64,000 nt of DNA from Candidatus Campbellbacteria bacterium GW2011_OD1_34_28 (GCA_001029775.1 CP011215.1:554303-618302), one strand, 5' to 3'; counted from the first letter of the stretch, positions 13,519 through 63,990 are shown. Program-made: numbers and translations. Notes: generated by a model from the sequence alone, not told the origin.

Positions 13519-13545
13519 GTGTCCGTTTGGACAAGGAGGAGTGGT

Positions 13546-14682
13546 ATGAAAAATTTTTTCAAGAATGTGTGGAGAAGAAAACCTTCGTCTACACCACCAA
13601 CAACACCTACACCACCTACACCACCTACACCACCTACACCACCATCACTAACACCTACACAGGAACCGGAAAAGGGAAAAAAGTCAATAAAAAGGTTGTA
13701 TACCTTTTTGATCGGGATGGCTTTCAACGCGGGGTTGATTTTTGTGGCGACTATTATCGTCACCAATTTCACCGGCGGTTTCAGTATCCGTGGCATCATT
13801 GCCTCGGTGCTCGTTGACTTGGCAATTCTACTTGTCTTTGGGTGGAATGGAATTCGTGAAATCAAACCAGTGCACATTGGTGTGCCGATGATCTTCGGAG
13901 ATTTGTCGGACTTATTTTTGCTCCCTGGCGGTTATTTCTGGTTACCTCCCAAACCTTTTATGGATTTTGTGGAGGTGTCTTTGAAAGAGAGGACGATGAA
14001 TCCTGACATTAAAGGGATTTTGTCGTCTGACAACAAAACGGCGAGCATCGACGCTCAAATTCAGTTTTTTGTAAGTAACCCGTACATTTACTTGAAAGTG
14101 GATGAACCCGACAAGGCTCTTGAGGGTCTGGTTGGGAGAAATGTCCGATGGCTGGCAAATATGGTGGAGGTCGTAAAACTTCCTGGGGTGAAGGGTCTAT
14201 TTTCCGATCTCTTGGAAGGAACAACTTTGGACAAGATAGTTGGGCATGATTCAACCGACACTGACAGAGTCGTCGCAGAGGCGTTGGCCTTAGGTCTAAT
14301 AAAAGACTCAGCAGAAGATTTTTCAAAAATAAACGTCGGCGGTATCAAAGAAACCGCGGAAGAATGGGGATTGACTATTAAGAAAGCCATGGTGACTGAG
14401 GTGGGAATTCCACAAGAAATCACCAAGGCCAATGCTGAAAAAGATGTTGAGATGGCCCAGGCCAGATCGGAAACTATTCAGCAGGAATTGTTTTGGACAC
14501 TTCTCGGCGGTGGAAATCTGGAGGAAGGAAAAGAGGTTTGGAAGAAGATGGATGGTCCTGAAAGGGCTAAAATAATTCAAGCCGAGAGAAATAAAAGAAC
14601 CGTCATCACGGTTGATGGCAACGCGGGAGATTTCACAAAGGGTGCTGTCGCGGGTGCTCAAATAACCGGAGGTAACCCATGA
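13546..14682 (+). CDS. SPFH/band-7 (stomatin/HflK-like) membrane protein with Pro/Thr-rich linker
   Basis: RBS aggagg plus ATG at 13546. TPPTPPTPP linker encoded by acaccacctac direct repeats. TM segment, then SPFH-like domain. G+C-rich island. Confidence 0.6.
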   Translation: MKNFFKNVWRRKPSSTPPTTPTPPTPPTPPTPPSLTPTQEPEKGKKSIKRLYTFLIGMAFNAGLIFVATIIVTNFTGGFSIRGIIASVLVDLAILLVFGWNGIREIKPVHIGVPMIFGDLSDLFLLPGGYFWLPPKPFMDFVEVSLKERTMNPDIKGILSSDNKTASIDAQIQFFVSNPYIYLKVDEPDKALEGLVGRNVRWLANMVEVVKLPGVKGLFSDLLEGTTLDKIVGHDSTDTDRVVAEALALGLIKDSAEDFSKINVGGIKETAEEWGLTIKKAMVTEVGIPQEITKANAEKDVEMAQARSETIQQELFWTLLGGGNLEEGKEVWKKMDGPERAKIIQAERNKRTVITVDGNAGDFTKGAVAGAQITGGNP

Positions 14683-25493: not shown

Positions 25494-25589
25494 TTTTTTC
25501 ACTTTAAAACCCCAGTAGCAGCAAGGCTATTGGGGTTTTGTTTAAAATTGAAAAAATAAAAAACTCCCAGCACGTGGTGTGCTGGGAGC

Positions 25590-48378: not shown

Positions 48379-48418
48379 AAAATGCCCAGTAGCAAGGCTA
48401 CTGGGAATTTTTTTTATT

Positions 48419-58731: not shown

Positions 58732-59205
58732 TCACTTTAACTTATTTTCAAATTCATTCAATAATTTTAAATATTCTAACTGTCTTTCTTTTTTTACCCA
58801 ACTCTCAGATAATTTACTCATATCGCCATTTTTCATAACTGAACTACACGGTGCACAATAAAAATTATCTTGAGTCGCAATAAAAATCCAGGGAGACTCC
58901 CAGCGCTTAAGAAGTTTTTCAGAATAATTTTTTATTTCTTCTAGATTGAAATTTTTTTGATATTTAACCTCCACAAGATATATTTTTGTTTTATCTTCAG
59001 ATACTAAAGCAAAATCAGGTGCTTCAGATATATTATCTATAACTTTTGGGACTTCTGAAATATGCCTATATTGAGCAAGTGTTGGCATTGTGTGTTCGTA
59101 ACCGAAAGGAATTACAGTATATTGCTCCTCCTCTCGAATCATTTGTTCAAAAATAACTTCCGCAATACGTCCTTTAATTAAATTTCTCGAAAAATCTATA
59201 TTCAT
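58732..59205 (-). CDS. hypothetical protein with PD-(D/E)xK-nuclease-like motif
   Basis: 157 aa. PDFALVSEDKTKIYLVEVKYQK is a D...EVK arrangement. Located just upstream of tRNA-Gln. Weak. Confidence 0.3.
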   Translation of the reverse strand: MNIDFSRNLIKGRIAEVIFEQMIREEEQYTVIPFGYEHTMPTLAQYRHISEVPKVIDNISEAPDFALVSEDKTKIYLVEVKYQKNFNLEEIKNYSEKLLKRWESPWIFIATQDNFYCAPCSSVMKNGDMSKLSESWVKKERQLEYLKLLNEFENKLK

Positions 59206-59269: not shown

Positions 59270-59340
59270 TGCGAGATCGTCTAATGGTAGGACTGCGGTT
59301 TTTGGTACCGCCTATCTAGGTTCGAATCCTAGTCTCGCAG
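59270..59340 (+). tRNA. tRNA-Gln (anticodon TTG)
   Basis: Acceptor tgcgaga/tctcgca. Anticodon stem gcggt/accgc with loop ttttggt (TTG). T-arm ctagg-ttcgaat-cctag. Discriminator g. CCA not encoded. Confidence 0.8.
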
Positions 59341-59543
59341 CAAAATGAACGAAGTGAAATTTTACTGCGGGACTAGAAACAGTACCTAAGTACTGTTTCG
59401 TAGGACTCGAACGGCGGAGCGGTTTACGATTTTTATTTTTTTCTGACACAAACAGAAAAAAATAAAAATTGTCGCGAGCCGCGTCCAGCGGTACTTAGTA
59501 AAATTTGAGCAAAGCGAAAAAGTTTACTTAGTAACCGCGGGAA

Positions 59544-59563
59544 GAATCCTAGTCTCGCAGCAA
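59544..59563 (+). repeat. 20-bp direct repeat of the tRNA-Gln 3' end (att-like)
   Basis: gaatcctagtctcgcagcaa at 59324-59343 and again at 59544-59563. Confidence 0.65.
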
Positions 59564-59780
59564 CGATAAACAAAAATACCGATTGAGGTATTTTAATTAA
59601 ACAAATAAAAACGACCACATTGTGGTCGTTTTCTCTCTGGTTTGCTCAATCCTGAAAAGCGGTTGAGCGAGTTGGATTGTCACCAGAGAAGGACATTCCC
59701 TCTCGCTTGACTATACATATAGTAACATATCAGATAGAAAAGTCAATAGTAACATCAATTATAAAATATCCTATATTTCA

Positions 59781-59855
59781 TTTACTTTTTAACTCAAATA
59801 TTGTAGTGTTTCAAATAGATTAAGAACTTTTAGAAAGCTTTACAAGGAGAAAAAG
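59781..59855 (+). promoter_or_regulatory. family-4 conserved leader (copy 2 at 62380-62454)
   Basis: tttactttttaactcaaatattgtagtgtttcaaatagatt.agaactttt.gaa..ctt...aaggagaaaa.ATG. Near-identical in both copies. Confidence 0.5.
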
Positions 59856-60227
59856 ATGAAAAAAATTGAAATTCCCTACTTTATTCAAATGCGAGGTTGC
59901 ATCAATTGTGAAATCTCAAAGAAACACAAAGAAAAAACTGGGAAAAAATATGGTTTTGACCATGAATTAATGTCTGTGTGTGTCATTAGAGGCTGTACTT
60001 CCAAAGGCTATAGCCTAGGACGACCATTTTTTGATATGGAACAACTTTTGGAAACTGTCCCTAAAAAAATTGAAAATCCAAAAAAAGCATTATCTCTTGT
60101 TGAACAACATCGTAATGATACAAAAAATAATTATGGTGTTTATTACAAAGAACTTGGTGTTGATATAGATGAAGCCTTTGATAATATTCGACGGAAAATT
60201 CAACAGCAATTAGACCTTAAACCGTAG
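59856..60227 (+). CDS. Cys-rich small protein
   Basis: 123 aa. CINCE and CVIRGC motifs. RBS aaggag. Confidence 0.45.
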   Translation: MKKIEIPYFIQMRGCINCEISKKHKEKTGKKYGFDHELMSVCVIRGCTSKGYSLGRPFFDMEQLLETVPKKIENPKKALSLVEQHRNDTKNNYGVYYKELGVDIDEAFDNIRRKIQQQLDLKP

Positions 60228-60238
60228 AGGAGAAATAA

Positions 60239-60616
60239 ATGACAACACACACATTTTCAAAAGAGTGGCCCGAGAGATGGGCAAGGTCAGATAAAGCATG
60301 GTCCAAGTGGAAAAAAGACGCAGAAAAAGGGAAATTTCCCAAACCAAGAGATCTCCAAAAGACTTGTGGTTATTGTGAAGAACATGGGGGAGTTTTTAGA
60401 GAAAAAGATCCTGACTGTGATAAATGTACTTTATATAAAAAATATATTTGTCACAACATCCTTCTTGTCCAAATGTCAGACATCCCCATATTTTGGTTAC
60501 TTGTTAGGGAACTTAAAAGAAACGAGATAGATAAACCTCGTGTGATCAGATTAATAAGCAGAATAGCCGATGCTATCAAAGAAGATGACCCTTCAAAAAC
60601 GACTGTTTCTGCATAA
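60239..60616 (+). CDS. Cys-rich small protein (paralog of 62455..62850)
   Basis: 125 aa. WPERW, CGYCEE, CDKC, and a conserved C-terminus IKEDDPSKTTVSA. Followed by twin hairpin terminators at 60625-60697. Confidence 0.5.
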   Translation: MTTHTFSKEWPERWARSDKAWSKWKKDAEKGKFPKPRDLQKTCGYCEEHGGVFREKDPDCDKCTLYKKYICHNILLVQMSDIPIFWLLVRELKRNEIDKPRVIRLISRIADAIKEDDPSKTTVSA

Positions 60617-60624
60617 AGAAAACA

Positions 60625-60697
60625 AAGGCTGACTTTCGCCAAAAGCGAAAGTCAGCCTTTTAAAATTGTAAGACGTCCGACTTCTTACATTTTTTTA
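60625..60697 (+). terminator. twin hairpin terminators (duplicated at 62856-62921)
   Basis: aaggctgactttcgccaaaagcgaaagtcagcctt, then tgtaagacgtccgacttcttaca plus a T-run. Near-identical second copy after 62455..62850. Confidence 0.65.
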
Positions 60698-60716
60698 TCG
60701 ACTATAGCACCAAAGA

Positions 60717-61754
60717 CTATAGATTTGTCAGCTTCATCAGACAAAGCTCCAAAGGAAGTTGTTTTATAAAAGACTTCCCAACCTTCTCCCCCACTTCCAA
60801 CATTTCTTTTATTGTTTCAGAGGAAATATTAGCTTCTTTGTTGTCCGCCAATTCTTGAACAAATTTAAAATCTTCTTCCGACAATTCTCCCTCTATTTGT
60901 TTTACCATATCCTTTGAAAATCTAATCAACAAAATGGCTCGCAATTTGTTCAAAATCAATCTCACAAAAACTTTCATATCTACATTATTTTCTACCGCTC
61001 TATCAATCGCTTTCAAACCAGTTTCCATATCTTTGTTTGCAATCCCAAAAATAAAATCGTTTACGAGTCTTGCCTTTGGAGCGCCTGTCACTATTTCTAC
61101 TTCTTCAATACTGATTGTTTTGTCCACAGACGAGCTAATTACTTTTTGCAAAATACCATGTGTATCACGAAAAGACCCATCTCCCAATAGAGCAATCAAA
61201 TCTGCAGAAGCCGGTTCAAGCTTGAAACCTTCTTTCTTTGCAACATCCAAAACCAAATCTTTTAAAATCTTTTGTGATGGTTTTTTAAATTGAAAAGTTT
61301 GGCACCTAGAAACTATAGTATCTGGCAATTTTTCTATTTCGGTTGTCGCCAAAATAAATATCACATGCTTTGGTGGTTCTTCCAAAGTTTTTAGAAGAGC
61401 GTTGAAAGCCTCTTTGGTAAGCATATGAACTTCATCTATTATGTAAACTTTGTATTGAGATTCAAAAGGTAAAATATTTACCGATTCACGCAATTCACGA
61501 ATGTCATCAATTCCTCTGTTTGAGGCGGCATCAATTTCGTAAATATCATTTTCAGTTGTTTTTATTTCATTGGCAAAAATCCTTGCGATAGATGTCTTGC
61601 CTGTTCCTCTGGTTCCGGCAAAAAGATAAGCGTGAGATATATTGCCCAAATTTATTGCACCACCCAAAGTCTTTACAATATGATCTTGTCCCAATACTTC
61701 TTTAAAATTGGAAGGGCGATATTTTCTATATAAAACTGTGTGCTCTTTTGTCAT
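60717..61754 (-). CDS. dnaX: DNA polymerase III subunit gamma/tau (short form)
   Basis: 345 aa. AAA+ Walker A GTRGTGKTSIARIFA and the clamp-loader N-terminus YRPSNFKEVLGQDHIV. Confidence 0.7.
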   Translation of the reverse strand: MTKEHTVLYRKYRPSNFKEVLGQDHIVKTLGGAINLGNISHAYLFAGTRGTGKTSIARIFANEIKTTENDIYEIDAASNRGIDDIRELRESVNILPFESQYKVYIIDEVHMLTKEAFNALLKTLEEPPKHVIFILATTEIEKLPDTIVSRCQTFQFKKPSQKILKDLVLDVAKKEGFKLEPASADLIALLGDGSFRDTHGILQKVISSSVDKTISIEEVEIVTGAPKARLVNDFIFGIANKDMETGLKAIDRAVENNVDMKVFVRLILNKLRAILLIRFSKDMVKQIEGELSEEDFKFVQELADNKEANISSETIKEMLEVGEKVGKSFIKQLPLELCLMKLTNL

Positions 61755-62064
61755 ATTGAGAATATTTTACCATAAAAATAATATTTAATTTATACCAAGG
61801 TTTAACTTTGATATAAAAAGGGCGGTGCTTGCGCACCGCCCTCAAACCTCAAAACCCAAGAGGTTTGTCAGCCCTTATTGGTCAGATCTGCTTCTCAAAA
61901 GCCTCCAATAAAATCACCTCCTTTTAGGTTGTCAGGTTATCCCATCAGATCGCCGTAACAATCGGACAGATCTTCAAGGGAAGTTCCCATCTTCTTCGTG
62001 GTCCTGAGAATCTTCAACCCGCGATTAATTTTTTCTCATTTCCGAATCCTCTAAGGGTGTTTCG

Positions 62065-62277
62065 TCATCCACAGGCTATGACACCGGCAACGATCCCATG
62101 AACAGGAACATGCGCAAATGTCTCTACGCCGAGGGTTTGCGCCTTCTGGTCATCATCGTGCAAATCGGGACGATCGTGAACTTCAGGCCGACGGTGATCC
62201 GCCAAATGGAATTCGTCATCGTCTTCCAGCAATAGCGATAGGTCTACTTCATCTTTTCTTCCTTTTGGGTCGGCCAT
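62065..62277 (-). CDS. small acidic hypothetical protein (GC-rich cargo)
   Basis: 70 aa. RBS aggagga plus ATG at 62277. Upstream TTGATT-18-TATTAT promoter. An about 200-nt G+C-rich ORF-free tail precedes the hairpin terminator at 61822-61846. Confidence 0.4.
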   Translation of the reverse strand: MADPKGRKDEVDLSLLLEDDDEFHLADHRRPEVHDRPDLHDDDQKAQTLGVETFAHVPVHGIVAGVIACG

Positions 62278-62454
62278 GTTCTTTCCTCCTGAAACTGGGT
62301 TAGTTAAAAATACATCTGATTAATATAATATTGTTTTTTAAATAAAAATCAACAGCAAGCAAAAGTTTAAACTTTTTTATTTACTTTTTAACTCAAATAT
62401 TGTAGTGTTTCAAATAGATTGAGAACTTTTTGAATCTTTGAAAAAGGAGAAAAT

Positions 62455-62850
62455 ATGCAAGAACAAGAAGAAAAACATGTCTATTCTGACAAATGGCCTA
62501 AGAGATGGAAAGAATCTTTGGACAAGTGGCAAAAAGTTAAAGAACTGCATCAAAACAATATTTCGAATATAAAAATTAAGATAAAAATAGGAGGAAGTTG
62601 CGGTTATTGTAAAGAATTTGGTGCAATTTCTCTTTCGAGTATACCATGCCTGAAATGTAGCCTTTTTCAGAAAAAAATTTGTATATGTTTAAGAGGAGAC
62701 GCTATAACATCTGGGCGTTTTGCATATTGGGAATTATTTAATGAACTCACTAAAAAAGATCACAGCAAAGAAATCATCAGCTCATGTATTGATAAAATAA
62801 TTACCGCCATAGAAGAAGACGATCCTTCAAAAGTGACGGCTTCTGCATAA
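62455..62850 (+). CDS. Cys-rich small protein (paralog of 60239..60616)
   Basis: 131 aa. WPKRW, CGYCKE, CLKC, and C-terminus IEEDDPSKVTASA. Confidence 0.5.
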   Translation: MQEQEEKHVYSDKWPKRWKESLDKWQKVKELHQNNISNIKIKIKIGGSCGYCKEFGAISLSSIPCLKCSLFQKKICICLRGDAITSGRFAYWELFNELTKKDHSKEIISSCIDKIITAIEEDDPSKVTASA

Positions 62851-62923
62851 AAACAAAGGCTGACTTTCGCCAAAAGCGAAAGTCAGCCTTTTAAAATTGT
62901 AAAACGTCCGACATCTTACAATT

Positions 62924-63298
62924 TTAAAACTTGAATAAGTTTTTTAGTTTGTTCAAAAAACCTTTGTCTGTTTCTGTAGGAACATAATTTTGTTTTTCGT
63001 CCACAATCATAATTATATTTTCACCTTCTTTTGCTACCTGAAACTTGCTTCTGATCTCTTCTTCTTTACCTTCTGATGTATTTAAACTGGAAATCTCTGT
63101 TTTAACAAAATCTTTTCTTGTTTTTAATTCTATTAATTCATTCTCTGCAACATTTCTATTATCACCTGTCAGCTTTGCTTCTCTATAAGCATTCCATGTT
63201 CCCTTGGCGATTAAAAGAAAAAGTATAAAAACAATCCCGACACTTATGCGAGAATAAATAATTCTTTTTACATATCGTTTTTCCTCATAATCCAACAT
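62924..63298 (-). CDS. septum formation initiator-like protein (FtsB/DivIC-type)
   Basis: 124 aa. Single TM, then a coiled coil. Confidence 0.4.
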   Translation of the reverse strand: MLDYEEKRYVKRIIYSRISVGIVFILFLLIAKGTWNAYREAKLTGDNRNVAENELIELKTRKDFVKTEISSLNTSEGKEEEIRSKFQVAKEGENIIMIVDEKQNYVPTETDKGFLNKLKNLFKF

Positions 63299-63555: not shown

Positions 63556-63990
63556 TTACTTAAAAACTTTCCTGAAGAAGAACCAAATGAGAGCAATGAT
63601 CACCCCAAGGGTGATAATGCTCTCAGCGAGCTGGGGCTGTGTCCGGACGAGGACGCTCAATCCTACGACCGTCACAACGATCGGAGCGATCCGACCGATC
63701 TGAGCACCTGCCCAGCGACTGAAGCGGGCCAACGAGTGACCCATGCCGGTCAGGATGTCGCCAGAGATAGCGCCGATCCCCAGATGCATTGCAGGAACGG
63801 TCAACGACGCAATGACATCGTTGGTCACCAGATAACCAACCCAACCGGTGATCCCAAGGGTCGTCGGAACGACCACCAAAGAACCCAGCACACTACCGAT
63901 GCGCCACATCCGGAAAGCCCGGTTGTAACGCCAGAGGCCACCGACGATGGCGGTGATCAGTAGAAAACCCCAGAAAACCAACTGACTCAA
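63556..63990 (-). CDS. polytopic membrane protein (GC-rich cargo)
   Basis: 144 aa. ATG at 63990 near the window edge. Four TM helices. Strongly G+C-rich. Terminator aggcctcgtgc..gcacgaggcct at 63513-63545. Confidence 0.45.
   Translation of the reverse strand: MSQLVFWGFLLITAIVGGLWRYNRAFRMWRIGSVLGSLVVVPTTLGITGWVGYLVTNDVIASLTVPAMHLGIGAISGDILTGMGHSLARFSRWAGAQIGRIAPIVVTVVGLSVLVRTQPQLAESIITLGVIIALIWFFFRKVFK

Follow-up and report, generated by a model that had tools for sequence, protein, structure and literature searches.

Near-identical leaders and terminators around diverged five-cysteine genes on both sides of dnaX in a Candidatus Campbellbacteria genome

The presence of two similar gene modules on either side of the housekeeping gene dnaX in Candidatus Campbellbacteria bacterium GW2011_OD1_34_28 raises the question as to whether the modules were recently duplicated as wholes, were moved as a mobile unit or share only certain parts by recent copying. 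We addressed this in a stretch of 64,000 nucleotides (CP011215.1:554303-618302, referred to throughout as the window), which has 100% identity with contig DNLU01000003.1 of GCA_003489565.1, a Candidatus Campbellbacteria assembly from the candidate phyla radiation (CPR). An earlier note, made from the sequence alone, had described each module as a leader, a cysteine-rich gene and twin terminators, and had taken the whole as a recent segmental duplication or a mobile module. Our analysis points elsewhere, namely to two units of a small fast-evolving gene family in a recombination hot spot bounded by tRNA-Gln and divIC, whose flanks were probably homogenised recently and whose variants were probably swapped between strains. 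The layout recurs on all 24 of the contigs read that bear the second of the two family proteins (B) and on an independent metagenome contig (L015), which excludes an assembly artefact. L001 to L016 denote the related or family-bearing loci used for comparison, and the features of the window on which the comparison turns are the following.

59776 to 59855, plus strand: leader L1, upstream of ORF1
59856 to 60227, plus strand: ORF1 (open reading frame 1), 123 amino acids, a lineage-restricted orphan
60239 to 60616, plus strand: paralog A*, 125 amino acids, five conserved cysteines
60624 to 60660, unstranded: hairpin hp1, first copy, whose perfect 16-bp stem is accompanied by an A-tract and a T-tract
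60664 to 60692, unstranded: hairpin hp2a, putative resident terminator at the dnaX 3' end, found after dnaX in L001 to L004, L007 and L014
60717 to 61754, minus strand: dnaX, clamp-loader gamma/tau subunit, 345 amino acids (Pfam DNA_pol3_delta2 at 1.3e-35, AAA and DNA_pol3_gamma3)
62065 to 62277, minus strand: small ORF, 70 amino acids, GC-rich, upstream of dnaX, lying between the modules and outside the five-cysteine family
62366 to 62371, unstranded: left TTTAAA of the putatively relocated L-B-hp1 segment (partner TTTAAA at 62890 to 62895), placed by alignment to the uninterrupted sites in L001 and L013
62375 to 62454, plus strand: leader L2, the native leader of B, with orthologous leaders before B in L001 to L005, L008 and L013
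62455 to 62850, plus strand: paralog B, 131 amino acids, five conserved cysteines and two more
62855 to 62891, unstranded: hairpin hp1, second copy, identical to the first
62895 to 62923, unstranded: hairpin hp2b, putative resident terminator at the divIC 3' end
62924 to 63298, minus strand: divIC/ftsB-like septum-formation gene (Pfam DivIC at 8.2e-09), the right landmark of the region

The similarity of the two modules is not uniform along their length. The leaders (L) share an exact match of 41 nucleotides (nt) between 59781-59821 and 62380-62420, a length matched in 0 of 100 shuffles, and their cores are identical at 45 of 46 positions. Over the 89 nt from 59776-59864 against 62375-62463 the ungapped identity falls to 83%, so that the description of the leaders as near-identical applies to the first 45/46 nt and fails for the approximately 34 nt at the 3' end including the Shine-Dalgarno region, which have diverged. 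At the other end of the modules the terminator blocks (T, the twin hairpins, 60619-60694 and 62850-62925) agree at 73 of 76 nt (96%). Between these flanks only 189 of 366 nt (52%) are identical in the aligned codons of A* and B, a difference that is highly significant for both the leader core (Fisher p 3.5e-11) and T (p 3e-15). Identity falls at the stop codon itself, from 73/76 in T to 36/45 over the last 15 codons (p 0.009).

More than the terminators is nonetheless shared, as A* and B are homologous proteins (35% identity, E 9e-20) and both carry all the motifs listed in the earlier note (WPxRW, CGYCxE, CxKC and a C-terminal EDDPSKxTxSA). Their synonymous divergence (dS) of 1.68 is saturated. 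Orthologs of B in other lineages are closer to it (approximately 60% identity) than A* is (34-38%), A* belongs to an allele lineage of its own (P0006/L014, 50% identity) and the further subfamilies A and A' exist. These comparisons show coding paralogs of old origin between leader and hp1 copies that are young. Since the coding paralogs are ancient while the leader and the first hairpin are identical and carry lineage-only substitutions, it is the flanks only that would have been copied or homogenised.

The near-identical flanks, flanking what are clearly paralogous proteins, are what suggested a recent duplication of the whole module, and very rapid coding divergence under positive selection might be proposed to reconcile them with the genes in view of the elevated ratio of non-synonymous to synonymous change (dN/dS) in the family. 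Over whole genes this ratio reaches 0.41-0.57 in B and 0.14-0.30 in A and A', compared with a range of 0.05-0.13 across dnaX, divIC and ORF1 (0.09-0.11 in dnaX), and A* of the window and of L007 (97% identical) differ by 4 non-synonymous and 0 synonymous changes. Selection on the protein cannot however produce a saturated dS, nor does this account fit the subfamily structure or the drop in identity at the stop codon. Flanks of 98% and 96% identity around old codons thus exclude that the module was recently duplicated as one segment, and the variant of this account with accelerated divergence seems to us very improbable indeed. Near-identical flanks around diverged genes need not signal recent duplication.

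The extra cysteine-rich gene that the earlier note saw in the first module, ORF1, is real and encodes a protein with four cysteines. It lies 11 nt before A* in an operon, is under purifying selection (dN/dS 0.12-0.13) and has one homolog cluster among 5.8 billion proteins. We considered ORF1 as a distant member of the five-cysteine family and rejected this (hhalign probability 2.5%).

If the flanks are alike but the genes are not, it may be asked whether any recent copying is needed at all. Each leader contains a putative -35 element (TTTACT at 59781-59786 in L1; 62380-62385 in L2), a putative -10 element (TAGTGT at 59804-59809; 62403-62408) and a Shine-Dalgarno site (AAGGAG at 59844-59849; 62444-62449), and the leader is most readily understood as the promoter, in putative assignment, and 5' untranslated region (UTR) of the five-cysteine gene family. 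A 27-nt core, CAAATATTGTAGTGTTTYAAATAGATT, is unchanged in the leaders that precede B in L001 to L005, L008 and L013. With this core invariant in every lineage while dnaX differs by approximately 15% in nucleotide sequence, the core must also be under selection. We also considered a regulatory structure in the 5' UTR and dropped it, as the consensus fold reaches just -3.6 kcal/mol and lacks a covariation term. The hp1 stem is likewise maintained by compensatory change, with one base pair read as A-T in the window, G-C in L004, L008 and L013 and A.C in L001 and L002, a series that supports a functional stem. Together the invariant core and the compensated stem speak for an account in which purifying selection alone keeps a shared operator or promoter and a shared terminator alike, without recent copying.

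This account falls short at positions that vary freely. The spacer is TTTTAACTC in the two leaders of the window, compared with TTTTTATCC, TTTTCACCC or TTTTCACTC in other lineages. Each hp1 copy of the window carries GAAAGTCAGCC and CTTTTAAAATTG where other lineages carry GAAAGCCAGCC and CTTTTTAAATTG, and hp1 together with the linker to the next hairpin, TTTTAAAATTGTAA, is identical in the two modules. The region upstream of ORF1 in L001 and L002 is unrelated to the leader, which is thus not ancestral to ORF1 in every lineage. Among three close strains the ORF1 leader is a mosaic, being a full B leader in L014 (98.7% over 77 nt), intermediate in L007 and most diverged, in its 3' part, in the window. 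The lineage-specific states shared by the window copies and the mosaic ORF1 leader indicate repeated copying or conversion within the lineage, for which purifying selection alone is insufficient, and we consider selection without recent copying improbable.

The twin terminators proved to be two independent hairpins rather than one unit, although their near identity stands. The hairpins of both blocks form strong folds whichever strand is read (z -7 to -10), and hp2b folds better on the minus (divIC) strand. By its stem with A-tract and T-tract hp1 is a putative bidirectional terminator. L013 has hp2 by itself right behind divIC, with no L-B-hp1, in L008 and L013 B is followed by hp1 only, and all three differences between the two window blocks fall in hp2. 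On these grounds hp1 would appear to travel with the family gene, and hp2 to be resident at the site, where it terminates the housekeeping gene that runs towards it (dnaX or divIC). A search for further copies gave just two leaders and two copies of hp1 in the window. In relatives another stem-loop, CCCAGTAGC...GCTACTGGG, lies between paralog A and the leader (L001 4265-4287), and the window has the same stem-loop in two unrelated regions between genes (48384-48406 and 25513-25535); terminator hairpins in the Campbellbacteria genome seem to form dispersed repeat families.

How the second unit came to lie beside divIC can be approached from the arrangement of the locus in relatives. In L001 the order is ORF1, A, a hairpin, L, B, hp1 and hp2 converging on dnaX, followed by a small ORF and divIC, and L002 has the same order with an additional paralog A'. 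In L008 and L013 a DUF6122 gene, A', A, a hairpin, L, a pseudogene of B and hp1 are followed by two unrelated genes and dnaX. All four of these relatives have every paralog on one side of dnaX and a leader before B only. The lineage of the window (the window, L007, L014, L015 and L016) has its B unit placed between the small ORF and divIC and a copy of the leader before ORF1. In blastn the window, from the 3' end of A* through T into dnaX, aligns without a break with L001 from the 3' end of B through T into dnaX, while 62374-62924 of the window aligns with L-B-T of L001 at 78%. Compared with L013 the window has L-B-hp1 inserted, with the right junction in hp2 homology and the left junction at TTTAAA, a hexamer of which L013 has a single copy at this point and which brackets the segment in the window as well as the donor position in L001 and L002. 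We infer that L-B-hp1 was inserted by recombination anchored in homology and resolved at microhomology, in a single event; it is the only relocation among all the loci recovered.

The relocated unit could in principle be a mobile cassette, the second possibility raised in the earlier note. The combination of leader, gene and hairpin would in that case be autonomous or mobilised in trans and would insert at TTTAAA, in the manner of a miniature inverted-repeat transposable element (MITE) or an integron cassette. Such a cassette would explain why the L-B-hp1 site differs from that of relatives and why TTTAAA stands on both sides as against once in L013, and it would suit a tRNA-linked region with an attachment-site (att)-like duplication of the tRNA 3' end and a family whose distant members are phage-borne. 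The window gene calls and Pfam nevertheless gave no transposase or integrase in or beside the unit (the neighbours are dnaX, the small ORF and divIC), an inverted-repeat scan of the window found no terminal inverted repeats pairing the unit ends, and the unit holds a single ORF without a Pfam, NCBIfam or PHROG match. There are two copies only in 64 kb, and the first "copy" has a different cargo (ORF1 and A*), which is unexpected for a transposed unit. The right junction falls within a homologous hairpin already resident at the site, and a single relocation is seen among the recovered loci. The paired TTTAAA, a frequent hexamer in AT-rich DNA that stands on both sides of the donor position too, may or may not mark a target-site duplication. 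With junctions formed by a resident hairpin and TTTAAA microhomology the proposal of a mobile module is not borne out; we rate it as quite improbable, and the locus is no new kind of mobile element.

It may also be asked whether the unit came from outside. Natural transformation could have brought the B unit from another Campbellbacteria strain, by homology-facilitated illegitimate recombination at hp2, with the flanks homogenised later. One junction in homology and the other in microhomology would fit such an import, as would the allele type of the B 3' end, which reads KVTASA where A* reads KTTVSA (the A* form resembles B of L008 and L001), and the documented replacement of alleles between close strains. 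The same evidence does not separate import from copying within the genome, and to import we give only a small probability.

The replacement of alleles is seen in L014, a strain whose dnaX and ORF1 are 99.2% and 96.5% identical to those of the window. Its A* matches that of the window at 100% over the first and last approximately 10 codons and at 20-73% in between, and its overall amino-acid identity is 50% with dS of approximately 1. A* accordingly has conserved first 10 and last approximately 10 codons and a centre that is hypervariable between strains. The first gene after ORF1 always begins with MTTHTFSKEWPER regardless of its subfamily, and the 3' end of A* is of the B type. In L015 the arrangement of the window is kept, with L and B approximately 98% identical, and the allele of the neighbouring small ORF is replaced. 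Both the relocated L-B-hp1 and the replaced L014 allele are bounded by the leader with the first codons and by the last codons with hp1. As the diverged L014 allele lies between identical ends, the flanks and conserved gene ends would act as homology arms, and the locus appears to behave as an array of hypervariable cassettes whose ends are conserved. Another CPR genome (L012 6001-6975) has two family genes in tandem, with 87% identity over the 3' 119 nt and 71-86% over the rest of their length, which makes a second instance of homogenisation that favours the 3' end. We also considered whether conserved flanks are the rule for family members in tandem and dropped the idea, since the L012 paralogs are alike throughout and most alike at the 3' end.

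The reading that we favour, recent homogenisation of flanks and swapping of variants in a recombination hot spot, would run as follows. In the lineage of the window a copy of L-B-hp1 would have been placed beside hp2 at the divIC end, its right junction formed through hp2 homology and its left through TTTAAA microhomology. A tract of approximately 80 nt of L would have overwritten the promoter of ORF1, and A* would have kept or acquired a B-type 3' end with hp1. The promoter with the first 10-17 codons on one side and the last 10-15 codons with hp1 on the other could then serve as homology arms, via which the variable gene centre would be exchanged, duplicated or deleted. Both units would stand under the same promoter and are therefore presumably co-regulated.

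Several observations weigh against this reading. TTTAAA is a common hexamer in a genome of 33% GC and may mean nothing, and with few lineages the order and direction of the rearrangements are unrootable, so that the leader before ORF1 could be ancestral. The invariance of the 27-nt core in all lineages means that the identity of the flanks reflects in part purifying selection and not recombination. The putative promoter, TTTACT-17-TAGTGT, matches the consensus at 7 of 12 positions and is unreported by a consensus scan, and whole-gene dN/dS remains below 1, which falls short of demonstrating positive selection. A role of the proteins in genetic conflict has against it that PADLOC and PHROG gave no match, that tblastn of B and P0030 found nothing in GenBank phages, that scans of IMG/VR gave no confirmed relative, and that phage-like contexts account for 2 of approximately 8 independent contexts examined for family members.

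In order to place this behaviour among known systems we compared the locus with several of them. In T4-type phages, PeSL (promoter-early stem-loop) cassettes combine a sigma-70-like promoter and a stem-loop terminator that flank small, non-essential ORFs of fast turnover; they bound insertions, deletions and replacements between close relatives and supply homology for modular shuffling (Arbiol et al. 2010, PMC2839356; Comeau et al. 2014, PMC4122927). Mini-circles, excised with a single cassette and an ORF, are a further trait of the PeSL type (PMC2839356). By analogy they appear to be the closest counterpart to the behaviour of the window flanks. The PeSL layout is seen in L001, L002 and L008, where the stem-loop CCCCAGTAGCCTTGCTACTGGGG lies immediately next to the putative leader promoter, and rearrangements and replacements at the locus are bounded by leader and hp1 ends. 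The window however belongs to a cellular CPR genome and not to a phage, it has two leader and two hp1 copies per 64 kb where PeSLs number dozens clustered in hyperplastic regions of the phage, its homology arms run into conserved first and last codons and its putative promoter is a weak match to the consensus. On account of the cellular genome, the two copies only and the arms reaching into coding ends we did not class the locus as PeSL.

Concerted evolution by gene conversion of parts of paralogs offers a second comparison, together with mosaic loci of the antigenic-variation or immunity type, in which ends are conserved and centres vary. The locus resembles these in its young homogenised segments beside old ones, in its conserved ends and hypervariable centre and in a copy number that varies with pseudogenes. 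It differs from mosaic cassette loci in having no silent donor cassettes and no dedicated recombinase, and its variable product is neither a surface antigen nor an immunity protein of known kind but a predicted cytoplasmic protein of metal-binding type. Homology-facilitated illegitimate recombination is known from naturally transformable bacteria and shares with the relocation a homology of approximately 35-50 nt at one end (the hp1 linker and hp2) and 6-nt microhomology at the other, though here it would be read from a single event. The locus is best described as a variant of recombination via regulatory cassettes combined with gene conversion.

CPR bacteria (Patescibacteria) have small genomes rich in unnamed genes, and little is known on how they vary or handle phages. 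The locus provides a sequence-level example in which promoter and terminator units and conserved gene ends may provide the points at which members of a hypervariable gene family are swapped, moved or placed under another promoter, a behaviour documented so far mainly in T4-type phages.

What the shuffled genes encode was approached through the family as a whole. An exhaustive profile search gave 119 representative clusters at E<1e-3, compared with six close clusters only from a word-indexed search. Members have 105-140 amino acids and have in common W..S..KW, CGYCxE[FY], CxxC[PS]L, a fifth cysteine, FW and AI..D.P, with five invariant cysteines spaced as CGYC-x12-13-CxxC-x7-C. No signal peptide or membrane segment is visible in the family sequences. 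An AlphaFold2 model based on 56 sequences (predicted local distance difference test, pLDDT, 89; predicted template modelling score, pTM, 0.83) has eight helices and no strands, and both AlphaFold2 models (pLDDT 81 and 89) are entirely helical. The proteins are thus predicted to be cytoplasmic and all-helical. The zinc-ribbon fold that the earlier note had put forward for structure prediction is contradicted by the two models, which have no strands and so no beta-hairpin knuckles. A thioredoxin fold, considered for the DsbC-like CGYC, was also rejected, since the model is all-alpha, the Pfam Thioredoxin match in 1 of 56 members (E 0.039) is noise and Foldseek returned no such match in the PDB.

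Searches for annotated relatives were negative. Pfam, NCBIfam, PHROGs and PADLOC gave nothing above noise for the window proteins and 56 members, PADLOC having no match at E<=1 and PHROG only two single-member matches (E approximately 0.006) among the 56. Sequence searches of the PDB with both profiles found nothing below E 0.07, Foldseek of both models against PDB and BFVD returned generic helical bundles only (best E 0.12), and longer members (160-236 amino acids) contained no informative domain fusion when scanned. An unnamed family of approximately 120 amino acids with a confident predicted fold and without a solved or annotated relative is a reasonable target for biochemistry. Zinc-binding anti-sigma (ZAS) domains and the iron-sulphur (Fe-S) proteins of the WhiB-like group are likewise small helical cytoplasmic proteins with a cysteine cluster, some of them phage-encoded. 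The family shares with them a small helical protein with an invariant cysteine cluster, which we treat as a functional analogy and not as membership, and differs in its cysteine spacing (CxxC-x12-13-CxxC-x7-C) and in having no sequence or Foldseek similarity to a solved structure.

Members are found in modules of phage DNA metabolism (L009 to L011); of two such phage-like modules one has a PD-(D/E)XK nuclease, Gp3-like, YopX, methyltransferase and RusA genes and the other SbcCD-like genes, YopX, ThyX, RecA and RNase HII. CPR chromosomes also carry members, among them one tandem pair near a TraG/TrwB-like gene, and other member sites adjoin RecA/EF-P/S18 or ParB/Cas2. In some genomes the family is decaying, B being a pseudogene in L008 and L013 with an in-frame TAG after codon 20 (L008 1541-1924, L013 5995-6378), where the gene caller gave just the 87-amino-acid C-terminal part. 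Five invariant cysteines in a helical cytoplasmic protein suggest, with low confidence, that they bind zinc or an Fe-S cluster. The five cysteines, the turnover pattern and the phage links led us to propose, as a tentative best guess, a metal-stabilised binding protein acting in phage-host or other genetic conflict, a role that would explain the diversifying turnover. The more far-reaching version, in which the five-cysteine proteins are an undescribed metal-binding family of CPR bacteria and phages engaged in genetic conflict (defence, counter-defence or exclusion) and diversified by PeSL-like exchange in a cellular genome, is in our estimate unlikely. If true, it would be the first regulatory-cassette shuffling system described outside phages.

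The region upstream of the array contains further features that vary between strains.

59270 to 59341, plus strand: tRNA-Gln (UUG), from ARAGORN and Rfam RF00005 (58.7 bits), the left landmark of the variable region
59324 to 59343 and 59544 to 59563, plus strand: 20-nt direct repeat of the tRNA-Gln 3' end, read from the sequence
59605 to 59712, plus strand: structured non-coding element, upstream of the array in every lineage

The placing of the module in a tRNA-linked variable region rearranged around dnaX is upheld by these comparisons. It does not lie immediately downstream of tRNA-Gln as had been written, for the first leader starts approximately 435 nt further downstream. The last 20 nt of the tRNA, GAATCCTAGTCTCGCAGCAA, recur 200 nt downstream, and the copies bracket a 200-nt insert that holds a palindrome with 20-nt arms (59426-59472), a pattern that resembles the att-type duplication which an integrated element leaves behind. 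Strains L007, L014 and L016 have the tRNA in inverted orientation and a DUF6122 gene at this position instead. On the other side of the tRNA the segment 58690-59227 holds a gene for 157 amino acids (58732 to 59205, minus strand) with a weak match to the N-terminal part of a TnsA-like endonuclease (E 0.076). This segment is missing in L014 and L016, where the flanks are 99.7% identical, and is another strain-specific insertion beside the tRNA.

The structured element of approximately 110 nt (59605-59712) consists of a bidirectional terminator hairpin (59607-59633) and two further hairpins. It is 87-98% identical in L001, L002, L007, L008 and L014, even where both neighbours differ, with an alifold energy of -44.7 kcal/mol and too little sequence variation for covariation to be read. 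Neither in this element nor in the GC-rich stretch upstream of dnaX was signal recognition particle (SRP) RNA or another known RNA found by Rfam, even at E<=1. A small RNA is one possible identity of the element, and a regulator that acts on the array in cis is another.

Between the modules the small ORF (62065-62277) has approximately 50% GC against a background of 33% and a strong Shine-Dalgarno site. Its acidic N-terminal part is conserved (DDDEFHLADHRRPE..RPDL), its C-terminus, rich in glycine, alanine, valine and cysteine, is hypervariable, and no Pfam, NCBIfam or PADLOC match was found. By analogy the layout resembles that of a precursor of a ribosomal peptide (RiPP). Also on the minus strand, 61818-61923 includes a 40-nt stretch 97.5% conserved with L001 and absent from L015, and has a 12-nt perfect Shine-Dalgarno sequence, AAAGGAGGTGAT, before a mini-ORF of 8 codons (MEAFEKQI if the start is TTG). 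A GC-rich terminator comes next, close before dnaX, so that the whole could be an attenuator or encode a leader peptide. Islands of 46-62% GC against approximately 33% in the genome were seen at 63556-63990 (minus strand), 13519-14682 (plus strand) and 61800-62200, and include a membrane protein of 144 amino acids without a family match and an SPFH/Band 7 protein.

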